Assembly: GCF_058153355.1 (NCBI RefSeq)
Contig: NZ_CM177019.1
Length of the DNA: 64,000 nt
Strand: one strand, 5' to 3'
The notes beneath the pieces were generated by a model. That model searched no databases, had not been told where the DNA came from, and worked only from the letters and a program-made list of their open reading frames with translations. Of the stretch, positions 22,947 to 26,180 are shown piece after piece. How positions within the stretch are numbered: position 1 is the stretch's first letter; every line of letters begins with the position of its first letter. Position numbers and translations under genes: made by a program.

Positions 22947-23034
22947 GGTGAGGTGTCCGAGTGGCTGAAGGAGCACGCCTGGAAAGTGTGTATACGGCAA
23001 CGTATCGGGGGTTCGAATCCCCCCCTCACCGCCA
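22947..23034 (+). tRNA. serX: tRNA-Ser (anticodon GGA), 88 nt with long variable arm
   Basis: ggtgaggtgtccgagtggctgaaggagcacgcctGGAaa...gggggttcgaatcccccctcaccgcca; cloverleaf by eye, CCA-encoded 3' end. Confidence 0.9.
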
Positions 23035-23480
23035 TCTTTAAAGAAGAGCTCGTACGAAAGTACGGGCTTTTTTTTTCGTATATTGCACACACCGGGGGGA
23101 TGAGAAGCCCCGACAGGGGTTCGACAACTGGCGACAGCCAGTTGGACAGACCGTGAACGCAGTGAGCGGGCTGCCCGCAGGGCGAGCGAAGCGAGTCAAT
23201 CCCCCCCTCACCGCCATCTTTAAAGAAGAGCTCGTACGAAGGTACGGGCTTTTTTTTCGTATATTGCACACACCGGGGGATGAAAAGCCCCGACCGGGGT
23301 TCGACAACTGGCGACAGCCAGTTGGACAGACCGTGAACGCAGTGAGCGGGCTGCCCGCAGGGCGAGCGAAGCGAGTCAATCCCCCCCTCACCGCCATCTT
23401 TAAAGAAGAGCTCGTACGAAGGTACGGGCTTTTTTTTCGTATATTGCACACACCGGGGATGAAAAGCCCTGACCGGGGTA
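23016..23480 (+). repeat. tandem direct repeat array, about 2.6 copies of a ~180-bp unit, each unit beginning with a 19-nt copy of the serX 3' end and a hairpin+T-run
   Basis: aatccccccctcaccgcca recurs at 23016, 23198, 23378; following ~160 bp nearly identical between copies, with internal 8-bp stem caactggc/gccagttg. Confidence 0.85.
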
Positions 23481-23485
23481 CTTAG

Positions 23486-24172
23486 TTAATGCAACGGTTC
23501 ACCCTTTGTCGCCGCGGCTAATGGGCGAATTTTGTCACGGGTATCCCAGACCGGAGGGATTTCATCCAATTTAGTGACAGAAGCTCGTACAAAAGGCACC
23601 CGTGCAATAGTCATAATCGTATTCAACCAACGGTCACGAATAATGCGATCTGCCCTTTCATGACTCGGATCATCCAGCTCAATAACACAGACTATTTTAT
23701 TGTTCTTCTTTGAAACCAGAACATAATCCATTGCCATTCCATTATAAATTGCAAAGAAACGCTTTCTTTCTTCTTCGCTAAACTCGGGTTGTTCTGGAAA
23801 GTTGATCAAGCGCCCCAGAGAGACCTGGCAATGGATATGGCAATAATGTCCAAACCATTTCTCCAGATTATCGAAATAGATTTTCTCACAACGCGTAATT
23901 AACCACTCTTTTCCTTCCAATAAAATGCCTTCGGCAACCATTCCCTGAAATAACTCATCTCGTTCTTGCCAACGAGAATCACGATAGGTTTTCTGCGGTG
24001 TATAGCTCCTTGTCGACGCCTTAACAGCAGGGGAAGTTGCAGATGAAGGGACTGGTTGCAATTTAGTGATGATTACCGATGAGGCAACTTTTCGGAGTGT
24101 CAATTTTCTGGCAACAGCAAAACCGGCGACAAATGCAATTGTCAAACAAGTTACAAAAACCATAAAGCTCAT
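23486..24172 (-). CDS. orphan membrane-anchored protein with putative DUF2726 / PD-(D/E)xK nuclease-like C-terminal domain (228 aa)
   Basis: ORF 23486..24172 with AGGTGA Shine-Dalgarno; N-terminal TM helix; C-terminal motif AMDYVLV...KIVCVIELDDPSHE resembles the D..(D/E)LD..H signature I associate with DUF2726; not a gene I recall at this K-12 position. Confidence 0.55.
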   Translation of the reverse strand: MSFMVFVTCLTIAFVAGFAVARKLTLRKVASSVIITKLQPVPSSATSPAVKASTRSYTPQKTYRDSRWQERDELFQGMVAEGILLEGKEWLITRCEKIYFDNLEKWFGHYCHIHCQVSLGRLINFPEQPEFSEEERKRFFAIYNGMAMDYVLVSKKNNKIVCVIELDDPSHERADRIIRDRWLNTIMTIARVPFVRASVTKLDEIPPVWDTRDKIRPLAAATKGEPLH

Positions 24173-24721
24173 AATTAATCTTCACCTATCCATGTTGATT
24201 ATATTTCATTACTAACGCTACTCGCTGTAGCGAGTTACATGCCAACAATTCAACGATCCATATATAGTTAGTATCATGTTTTGATTATTACAACCATACC
24301 TATTTTGCCATTGCGGCTTGCCGTCCACAAAAAATAACAACACAAAATATTAGCCAAAGAATTAATTAAGATTAACCTGACATTTTTAATGTTATCCCTA
24401 AAAAATATAATCAGGGGAATGTATTCGGTGTTAATCAATCAGCCAAATTATGGTCCATTATTGATGGAACCTCATACGCAAAATTGGCACCAGACCTCCT
24501 GTACAGGTTGAATGGCTGAAAAAAGATAAGCAGATGCTCGCTTTTTGGGCTTCTGGAAGAAAAACTCTCCGCACTGGCGGTATTACACTGGTCTGGTGCT
24601 ATGACGACAAATGCCCGGTAAGAGTATCTAAACCTGAATTCATTTCAGCTTATCAACACGCTCAAAGTCGCCCCCTGAACGTTAACCTGAAGTGAAAATC
24701 TTTGCTGTTAATGAAATAAAA

Positions 24722-24745
24722 CAAAGCCCGGTTCGCCCGGGCTCT
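24722..24745 (-). terminator. hairpin downstream of phoH (putative terminator)
   Basis: agcccggttcgcccgggct inverted repeat just 3' of the phoH stop. Confidence 0.5.
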
Positions 24746-24760
24746 GCGCCGATAATACAC

Positions 24761-25684
24761 TTAACTGTATGCATGTAGCGTACGTTGGCAAAGTGCTGAA
24801 CGTACGCAATCCTCTTTACCGAATCGGACGATCCCGACCATTTCATCTTCTTCGAAACGTTCCAGCGCGTCACTTAATCCGGAGCGCACGCCGCGAGGTA
24901 AATCGCATTGCGTGATATCACCGTTGACAATAACCGTCACGTTCTCCCCGAGGCGGGTTAAAAACATTTTCATTTGCGCGGCAGTCACATTCTGCGCCTC
25001 GTCAAGAATGACGACTGCATTTTCAAAGGTACGTCCACGCATATAGGCGAACGGCGCAATTTCCACCTTCCCTATTTCCGGTCGCAGGCAGTACTGCATA
25101 AAGGAAGCCCCTAAGCGACGGACCAGCACGTCGTAGACCGGGCGAAAATAGGGAGCAAACTTTTCTGCGATATCACCAGGTAAGAAACCAAGATCTTCAT
25201 CGGCTTGCAGAACTGGACGGGTGACGATAATCCTGTCGACATCCTTATGTATCAGGGCCTCTGCCGCTTTTGCGGCACTGATCCAGGTTTTTCCGCACCC
25301 GGCTTCGCCGGTGGCGAATATCAGCTGCTTACTCTCAATAGCCTTCAGATAGTGCAATTGCGCTTCATTTCGCGCGAGGATGGGCGAGGTATCGCGACTG
25401 TCGCGGGCCATACCAATGGCTTCTACGCCGCTCATCTGCACAAGCGAGGTGACCGATTCTTCTTCACGCTGCTTATGGCTGCGCGAATCCCGTCTCAGCA
25501 CACGTTTTGCCTCGCGACGAGCTTTGATCACTGCTTTTTGTCTTCCCATGGAGAGCACCTTGAGTTGTTTGTATTCATCACACGCGCCGTTGGCAGCGCG
25601 ATTATGCGCACGAACATCAGAGGGTTGGCTTCCTTGTAAGCCATAGTTTGCTTTTGGATAAAATGCCGAAAAACGGCTACGCAC
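24761..25684 (-). CDS. phoH: PhoH, phosphate-starvation-inducible ATPase (307-aa ATG ORF; true N-terminus uncertain, see findings)
   Basis: ORF 24761..25684; Walker A GEAGCGKT and PhoH-family core; synteny next to efeB. Confidence 0.8.
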   Translation of the reverse strand: MRSRFSAFYPKANYGLQGSQPSDVRAHNRAANGACDEYKQLKVLSMGRQKAVIKARREAKRVLRRDSRSHKQREEESVTSLVQMSGVEAIGMARDSRDTSPILARNEAQLHYLKAIESKQLIFATGEAGCGKTWISAAKAAEALIHKDVDRIIVTRPVLQADEDLGFLPGDIAEKFAPYFRPVYDVLVRRLGASFMQYCLRPEIGKVEIAPFAYMRGRTFENAVVILDEAQNVTAAQMKMFLTRLGENVTVIVNGDITQCDLPRGVRSGLSDALERFEEDEMVGIVRFGKEDCVRSALCQRTLHAYS

Positions 25685-26014
25685 ACCGTTTGCGGCGTCG
25701 GTAACACGAGTAAAGAGAGGAAGTGAGAAAAATACAGAGTGACGAAGTTGCTACCGGAGGAGAAATCTCCGCGAGTGGTGGAGCCTTGCTTAACAAAACA
25801 TTGTCCAGAACAGGACGTTACCATCCGCGATCTCCATAGTGACTGACTATCACTGCCGGGAACTTCCGCTGCTACTTAATAAGTACAACAGATCTCGCAT
25901 TCATTGCAACAATATATTCACTTATATTTAACCATAAAACACCATTTCAGTGACATTAGTTTCTACTGGAAAGATGACAGAGTGATGACAGTGATGAAAA
26001 AAGCTGTGTGCTTT

Positions 26015-26180
26015 CAGCAGGATTCGCATCAGGCATCAACGCACGAACGCCGGATGCGGCGTGAACGCCTTATCCTGCCTACCGAACCCGCACCGATTGT
26101 AGGCATGATAAGACGCGCAAACGTCGCATCAGGCATCAGCGCACGAACGCCGGATGCGGCGTAAATGCCTTATCCGCCTC
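26015..26180. repeat. REP/BIME cluster (three or more REP units) between phoH and efeB
   Basis: repeated gccggatgcggcgtgaacgccttatcc and inverted copies. Confidence 0.7.

Follow-up and report, generated by a model that had tools for sequence, protein, structure and literature searches.

The phoH gene, which encodes the PhoH ATPase, lies on the minus strand of a 64,000-nucleotide (nt) stretch of contig NZ_CM177019.1 from RefSeq assembly GCF_058153355.1 (hereafter the window, by which we mean this whole stretch), and the DNA just upstream of its conserved part differs by a change of reading frame from the curated Escherichia coli K-12 record that we used for comparison (NC_000913, phoH b1020, 1084992..1086056). 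The break in the frame is a real and common natural allele, not a defect, and we think it likely that the window represents one of two natural versions, both common, of the phoH 5′ region, in which a leader that is both translated and structured toggles between being fused to PhoH and being separate from it. The conserved PhoH itself is the 262-amino-acid (aa) product of the ATG at 25549, which has a Shine-Dalgarno (SD) sequence of its own. The elements on which this account is built are given below; the counts refer either to 81 sequences, namely 80 species-level genomes of the Enterobacteriaceae and the window, in which the open reading frame (ORF) was traced from the aligned upstream ATG, or to a structure-blind MAFFT alignment of 34 species, called A2.

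24761..25549, minus strand: phoH coding sequence, 262-aa PhoH ATPase, from ATG 25549-25547 to stop TAA 24763-24761, as the coordinates of the NCBI Prokaryotic Genome Annotation Pipeline (PGAP) have it in relatives
25556..25561, minus strand: SD sequence AAGGTG of the 262-aa start; AAGGTGC stands 6 nt before the ATG in 81 of 81 sequences and is invariant in A2
25682..25684, minus strand: GTG that opens a mechanically called 307-aa ORF; no credible start
25707..25809 (approximate), minus strand: dimorphic variable patch with a 1-nt length difference, C-rich and G-poor, delimited by alignment with K-12
25822..25824, minus strand: conserved upstream ATG (uATG), the same as the b1020 start in NC_000913, with an ATG at the aligned position in 81 of 81 sequences
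25832..25835, minus strand: SD sequence GGAG of the uATG, separated from it by the 7-nt spacer GATCGCG; GGAGAT is invariant in A2
25528..25824, minus strand: 98-codon leader ORF (upstream ORF, uORF), out of frame with phoH, with its stop TGA at 25530-25528

A first-pass annotation of this DNA had noticed that the ATG at 25824 opens a separate frame, the 98-aa ORF 25528..25824, and that it stands 1064 nt from the end of the phoH stop (25824-24761+1), one short of the 1065 nt that specify the 354 aa of b1020. Both observations are borne out by the sequence, the list of ORFs and the K-12 record, and the alignment with K-12 that had been proposed as a check calls for a single 1-nt gap and places the b1020 ATG exactly on window position 25824. 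The uATG and the codon that corresponds to Met93 of the K-12 protein (ATG 25549) are 275 nt apart in the window, which is not a multiple of 3, so that the two are not in frame; moreover, stops interrupt the phoH frame between 25824 and 25684, which leaves no K-12-type 354-aa product to be read. The uORF, in turn, runs into phoH and stops 19 nt past the A of its ATG. The window strain cannot encode the 39-kDa long isoform of PhoH; it makes only the 29-kDa PhoH and probably also yields an unconstrained 98-aa by-product. The earlier suggestion that the ATPase core could still be expressed from a downstream start is right in substance, the start being the conserved ATG 25549 and not position 25684. 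A 307-aa ORF in the phoH frame (24761..25684) does exist, but the codon at 25684 is GTG rather than the ATG reported for it. As a candidate start for phoH this GTG was rejected, for it has no SD sequence, falls within a hairpin (H6, see below) and occupies an unconserved position, 45 codons upstream of the phoH start here and 49 codons upstream or missing altogether elsewhere.

That the 262-aa unit is the conserved protein can be seen from several sides. Its translation matches Pfam family PF02562 with E = 6.8e-77 over profile positions 2-204 of 205, and the NCBIfam equivalog model NF007827 is matched with 511.5 bits against a cut-off of 380 over its full length (1-253 of 253), starting 8 residues after the Met encoded at 25549; both Walker A (GEAGCGKT, for GxxGxGKT) and Walker B (VVILDEAQ, for hhhhDE) can be read in it. 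In a scan of one genome per species in the Enterobacteriaceae, residues 1-262 were 93-100% identical across 80 loci. PGAP gives a phoH of 789 nt and 262 aa in every RefSeq genome examined, a K-12 derivative included, in contrast to the 354 aa retained in the curated record of K-12. The first-pass annotation implicitly treated the 354-aa form as the real protein and the window as a damaged copy of its gene, a premise with which these and the following comparative data do not agree.

The frame break itself is best described in terms of the variable patch. Over about 100 nt (about 25809-25707) the window is 75% identical to K-12, with flanks that are 99-100% identical, and MAFFT puts the 1-nt gap after the T-run 25732-25728, although in so divergent a patch the missing base can be placed only to within a few nt. 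When a 141-nt query containing the patch was searched against 5,426 complete E. coli genomes, the outcome was bimodal: 1,954 genomes were of the window type (at least 95% identity, equal length), 3,453 were of the K-12 type (80-90% identity, one extra base) and 10 were intermediate, which puts the window-type allele at about 36% of 5,417 complete E. coli genomes. Identity over the 141 nt reached at least 99% in 521 complete genomes. The exact 98-aa translation is recorded on at least 1000 contigs, and the 90% cluster of this product comprises 382 members, nearly all of them 98 aa long, among which there is E. fergusonii with the identical frameshift; the 98-codon ORF is also kept in all four window-type variants sampled. 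With its 262-aa unit intact and its allele present in more than a third of complete E. coli genomes, the locus does not have the marks of a pseudogene or of a gene disrupted by frameshift.

The two E. coli alleles of the patch are about 25% apart over about 100 nt, and each is only 17-19% from E. albertii. The window-type allele is also found in strains whose PhoH protein equals that of K-12. Such divergence between identical flanks, together with the sharing of the allele with E. fergusonii and its presence in the strains with K-12-identical PhoH, points to either an old polymorphism or short-patch recombination between lineages. A third E. coli allele appears to exist as well: strain E69 (L004) has its frameshift at the T-run where E. 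albertii, Salmonella and Citrobacter have theirs, and not where the window type has it. This E69-like type may also be that of the 10 intermediate genomes, which have 90-95% identity over the patch.

Viewed across the family, the leader ORF turns out to be far more constant than its connection with PhoH. The uATG is present in all 81 sequences, and in none of them is its ORF cut short early, 84 codons being the minimum; in A2, GGAGAT and ATG are invariant in 34 of 34 species, with a conserved 7-nt spacer between the SD sequence and the start. Fifty-three of the 81 have the ORF fused to PhoH in proteins of 353-356 aa, with a frame that is open for about 100 codons upstream of Met93 and an ATG at -90 to -94; K-12, Enterobacter, Klebsiella, Kosakonia, Buttiauxella, Pluralibacter, Phytobacter and other genera belong to this set. 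The other 28 are unfused, and their ORFs all end within 26 nt of the phoH ATG. Twenty-three of them, found in the window, E. albertii, E. whittamii, Citrobacter, Salmonella and one Enterobacter, have 97-98 codons and the same TGA at +19, and five, from Pseudescherichia and Kluyvera, have 84 codons and a TAA 26 nt before the phoH ATG. The frameshifts that separate the ORF from phoH lie at no fewer than five positions, counted in nt from the ATG: at about 101 in the window type; at 120 and 121 in two single lineages; at 162, in the T-run, in Salmonella, Citrobacter, E. albertii and E. whittamii (the T-run 25669-25673 is shorter by 1 nt in the first three); at 176 in Pseudescherichia; and, as a +2 shift, at 190 in Kluyvera. 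These data show that the fused or unfused state has changed at five or more different positions in enterobacterial evolution, and they suggest that fusion to PhoH is incidental and evolutionarily reversible, with three states present within the genus Escherichia alone.

What is conserved in the leader is not a peptide. We compared codon positions in 54 fused sequences, that is, the 53 aligned ones and Klebsiella pneumoniae L033, whose locus was too short on its upstream side to enter the 81-sequence alignment. Entropy at the three codon positions is 0.80/0.79/0.80 in the N-terminal extension as opposed to 0.11/0.05/0.89 in the core; the ratio of nonsynonymous to synonymous substitution rates (dN/dS) is 0.3-0.9 in the extension and 0.01-0.07 in the core; and dS by itself is smaller in the extension than in the core by a factor of 3-5. 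The codon-position profile of the unfused lineages is equally flat. Taken together, the flat codon positions, the dN/dS values and the low dS mean that the leader is constrained at the level of nucleotides and not of amino acids, and that its 92 codons are free of peptide constraint.

The frame of the uATG, in contrast to its product, is guarded against stops. In 27 unfused sequences (the near-identical strain L002 was left out of this count) the uATG frame contains 0.19 stops before the phoH ATG, all of which are the natural ones at -26, whereas the two remaining frames contain 4.37 and 3.78; shuffled leaders contain 3.7 stops and have a probability of 0.017 of containing none. Identity among these 27 leaders has a median of 73% and a minimum of 54%. 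In the 53 fused sequences the uATG frame has 0 stops and the other frames have 2.81 and 7.3, and only 19-34% of the fused species have an unused frame that is free of stops beyond the shift point. A natural control is offered by E. coli EEC_W5 (L087, NZ_CM130020.1), which has the K-12-type allele with a 1-nt deletion that turns CTCCTCCGG into CTCCTCGG; its ORF is truncated at 44 codons by a TAA where the window type has CAA. Either the strain is a rare natural mutant, or the deletion reflects a sequencing error in its assembly. Frame-specific avoidance of stops combined with a flat codon profile is the pattern of a uORF whose frame is selected independently of its peptide, seen here in lineages that are phylogenetically non-independent.

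The nucleotide-level constraint has a counterpart in predicted RNA structure. RNAalifold applied to A2 returned 49 pairs, 17 of which showed compensatory double changes, compared with 9.7±1.4 in shuffled alignments (0 of 500 reached 17) and 6-10 with slid partners; counted as sequence-by-pair cells, the figures were 93 compensatory versus 33. The predicted hairpins are as follows.

25753..25774, minus strand: hairpin H3 (CGCGGA...TCCGG), alignment columns 122-143; 3 of 6 pairs compensatory, 96% of cells paired
25662..25699, minus strand: hairpin H5/H6 (GACGCCG...CGGCAT, inner part CGGT...GCCG); outer 7 of 7 and inner 2 of 4 pairs compensatory
25627..25642, minus strand: invariant hairpin GGCUU-ACAAGG-AAGCC; 5 of 5 pairs identical in 34 of 34 species, with no variation that could covary
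25576..25606, minus strand: hairpin H8/H9 (CAU...CGCGCUG-loop-CGGCGCG...AUG); in H9, 3 of 6 pairs compensatory (CG to UA), 98% of cells paired

Both the T-run 25669-25673 and the GTG at 25684 are contained in H5/H6, and the invariant hairpin sits in a block of about 50 nt whose conservation extends to every codon position. What look like peptide motifs in the extension fall on the arms of these hairpins. As to composition, the variable segment has a C/G ratio of about 2 over about 90 nt, with C at about 32-36% and G at about 17% across species; we found no paper that ties phoH to Rho or to a uORF. The loop of the invariant hairpin resembles the ACARGGA core of CsrA-binding sites, and a further GGA is present at the upstream SD sequence; no literature connecting CsrA with phoH was found. 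Rfam 15 gave no match to the leader at E <= 1 between 25550 and 25880, and a consensus scan of the conserved block gave no internal sigma-70 promoter. A terminator-like match on the plus strand (25626-25643) is the invariant hairpin read from the opposite strand, and such matches are not above the expectation from shuffles. GATC (Dam) sites are found at 25828-25831, between the upstream SD sequence and its ATG, and at 25526-25529, in phoH codons 7-8; the former is invariant and the latter nearly invariant in the 34 species, and the GAUCGC/GUGAUC helix that RNAalifold draws would close the whole leader.

These observations are probably explained by selection that keeps the act of translating the leader from the uATG to the phoH initiation region, and not the peptide that results from it. 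Translation of the leader would then most likely open structured RNA or deliver ribosomes to the phoH start, by coupling or by termination and reinitiation, for which there are two candidate features: the end of the ORF, where it is unfused, always lies within 26 nt of the phoH start, and the phoH SD sequence would be masked if CACU and GGUG formed the 4-bp helix that is predicted for them. Alternatively, or in addition, translation would shield the C-rich, G-poor leader from Rho-dependent premature termination. In keeping with this reading, retapamulin-assisted ribosome profiling (Ribo-RET) counts phoH among the genes that have a conserved internal start in frame and synonymous conservation that is locally raised (bioRxiv 10.1101/520783). 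We tentatively propose, with slightly less than even confidence, that an ORF of about 92 codons is selected for its translation, that it switches between fusion and an overlapping uORF, as a standing polymorphism in E. coli (36% window type, 64% K-12 type), and that it gates the synthesis of PhoH by coupling, by anti-Rho shielding or through a protein that binds the invariant hairpin. The 39-kDa PhoH of K-12 is said to have been studied by Kim et al. in 1993 and to have had an N-terminal sequence matching the 354-aa ORF, which would mean that the uATG is used.

Several points weigh against this account. The evidence for translation from 25824 in a window-type strain is indirect, PGAP annotates nothing over the leader patch, and no phoH entry was found in N-terminomics, TetRP or TRAINSPOTTER data. 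Since the species are related, the 81 sequences amount to far fewer independent trials, the unfusing events being only about 5-6 in number; some unfused ORFs could be open by luck, given that the alternative frame is already open in a fraction of fused species; and RNA-level constraint in the conserved blocks itself limits the appearance of new stops. The structural evidence consists of covariation, as the window leader taken singly is no more stable than its shuffles (z = -1.1), and neither the masking of the phoH SD sequence nor the long-range GAUCGC/GUGAUC pairing, neither side of which varies, has support from covariation. Rho protection and coupling are mechanisms suggested by composition and geometry. 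Finally, a uORF of 84-98 codons is far longer than classical leader peptides.

The most serious competitor is that the 354-aa PhoH is a functional ancestral protein whose long isoform is destroyed by the frameshift of the window, with the upstream ORF left behind as a decaying, functionless remnant. It can draw on the fact that fusion is kept in 53 of 81 sequences, with in-frame indels only, on the 39-kDa form that K-12 reportedly makes, and on islands of the extension (MVxSCTGQ, RGG..SGSDFFT and GLQGSQTSDVRAHNRA) that could be read as peptide motifs. These motifs, however, are hairpin arms that covary at the RNA level, and the codon-position, dN/dS and dS values described above reveal nucleotide constraint where a protein domain would call for amino-acid constraint. 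Nor is there decay after unfusing, the uATG frame having remained practically free of stops in leaders whose identity has fallen to 54-73%. Because the long form is gone from Salmonella, Citrobacter, E. albertii, E. fergusonii and over a third of E. coli, it must be dispensable, and we regard this explanation as unlikely. Somewhat less probable still is the opposite view, according to which everything upstream of ATG 25549 is untranslated 5′ leader, the uATG is not used and the 354-aa model of K-12 is simply over-extended. The uniform 262-aa calls of PGAP, K-12 derivatives among them, the NCBIfam model that begins after Met93 and the behavior of the region as a structured non-coding RNA are all in keeping with it. 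The authors of the Ribo-RET study also caution that some 5′-proximal internal starts may be mis-annotated primary starts. Yet an invariant SD sequence and ATG are hard to explain without translation, and the absence of early stops in 81 of 81 sequences follows the frame of the uATG through five or more frameshifts.

Two further possibilities concern the frame break as such. Programmed -1 ribosomal frameshifting might restore a long PhoH from the window allele, given that the leader has T-runs at 25728-25732 and 25669-25673 with hairpins following them; but neither T-run offers a slippery heptamer of the form X XXY YYZ in the register of the uORF, both are too short for transcriptional slippage, and the unfused lineages shift at different places, all of which makes this very improbable. 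A homopolymer error in the sequencing or assembly of the window, the assembly alternative of the first-pass annotation, is in our view scarcely credible. It is true that the gap was placed beside a run of five T and that the complete genome of EEC_W5 has an isolated 1-nt leader deletion elsewhere, possibly an error of this kind, but the frequency of the window-type allele, the record of its product on so many contigs and its occurrence in E. fergusonii exclude such an error, and the window and K-12 differ at about 25% of the patch positions, not at one base. Of the other two alternatives offered with it, the 1-nt length difference in the N-terminal region is real, and the difference in annotation is right in part.

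If the leader is indeed kept for its translation, the textbook N-terminus of the 354-aa PhoH would be a regulatory leader and not a protein domain. The long-standing conflict between 354 aa (K-12, UniProt) and 262 aa (RefSeq/PGAP) would then be resolved, with the first 92 K-12 codons behaving as a translated leader, which bears on structural and functional work on PhoH, a protein of which the function is still little understood. The long isoform is lacking in a third of E. coli strains and in all sampled Salmonella and Citrobacter, to which results obtained with K-12 PhoH constructs may therefore not transfer. A structured leader ORF that is kept open but unconstrained and alternates between fusion and separation seems not to have been described before; here it makes a candidate for a long uORF whose RNA structure is conserved, in a gene of the Pho regulon that ArcA and, in Salmonella, HilD control as well.

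Outside the leader, two elements frame the transcription unit.

25973..25990, minus strand: Pho box (predicted PhoB site) of the phosphate-regulated promoter P1, identical to TGTCATCACTCTGTCATC, for which 0 chance occurrences are expected
24721..24747, minus strand: terminator-like stem-loop with T-run after phoH, an 11-bp stem with 7 GC pairs followed by TTTATTTCAT; a pattern match only

The same 18-mer is the PhoB site mapped upstream of phoH in K-12 by chromatin immunoprecipitation sequencing (PMC10294691), and a second phoH promoter, P2, overlaps ArcA sites (PMC3798270). Elements of the repetitive extragenic palindromic type at 26032-26079 and 26102-26179, in the efeB-phoH intergenic region, match Rfam naRNA4, the second with 63 bits, above the gathering score. 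Directly downstream of phoH there is a gene with a DUF2726 domain (23486-24172, minus strand; Pfam 1.8e-18), followed by tRNA-Ser(GGA) at 22947-23034. The pga operon (for PGA exopolysaccharide), which in K-12 follows phoH immediately as pgaDCBA, is absent from this locus in the window (22947-24760), as it is in the closest complete genome, Z1323HEC0477. Between 23016 and 23459 run tandem direct repeats with a period of 180 nt, two full 180-nt copies of which are 99% identical, and a 60-nt unit present three times starts within the 3′ end of the tRNA-Ser and includes its terminator-like hairpin and T-run; the arrangement may be a repeated tRNA 3′ end or an attachment-site scar. On the plus strand, opposite the 3′ end of phoH, 24766-24959 matches the Rfam family Ysr251 of Yersinia antisense small RNAs (182.9 bits, gathering score 100), which may simply reflect the conservation of the phoH coding sequence, and ORFs of 144 aa and 88 aa that are antisense to the 5′ part of phoH are taken as chance ORFs.

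How does the phoH leader compare with systems that are already known? One close likeness is to genes with a pair of in-frame alternative starts, such as infB with its IF2 isoforms, clpA and arcB, and to the in-frame class of internal translation initiation sites defined by Ribo-RET, which lists phoH: two starts, each with its own SD sequence, are found on one mRNA, and in K-12-type phoH the second of them lies in frame inside the longer ORF, with raised synonymous conservation. Unlike in that class, the two starts of the window stand in different frames, so that no long isoform is made, and unlike the N-terminal domain of IF2, the segment between the starts of phoH is without amino-acid constraint. 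With mgtL-mgtA, corL-corA and tnaC-tnaA, as they are known from established work, phoH shares a conserved SD sequence and ATG in a long structured 5′ leader, the apparent conservation of the translation of the ORF rather than of its product, a C-rich, G-poor stretch inside the ORF and an ORF end beside the main start. It differs from them in that its leader ORF has 84-98 codons and not fewer than 35, carries no conserved sensor codons or arrest motif and is fused to the main ORF in most genera; a link to Rho, to a ligand or to a growth condition is likewise not experimental in its case. Terminating ribosomes can reinitiate at starts a short distance from the stop codon, and in this respect phoH resembles translationally coupled overlapping genes, as the stop of its uORF, at +19 nt or, in 5 species, at -26 nt, is within that range; in contrast to established coupling, the masking of the phoH SD sequence is a predicted 4-bp helix without covariation. 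Lastly, the locus looks like the start-codon annotation discrepancies that arise when the longest ORF is over-extended, with 354 and 262 aa given for identical DNA, but in phoH, unlike in a chance over-extension, the upstream ATG is invariant, bears an SD sequence and has its frame kept open throughout the family.

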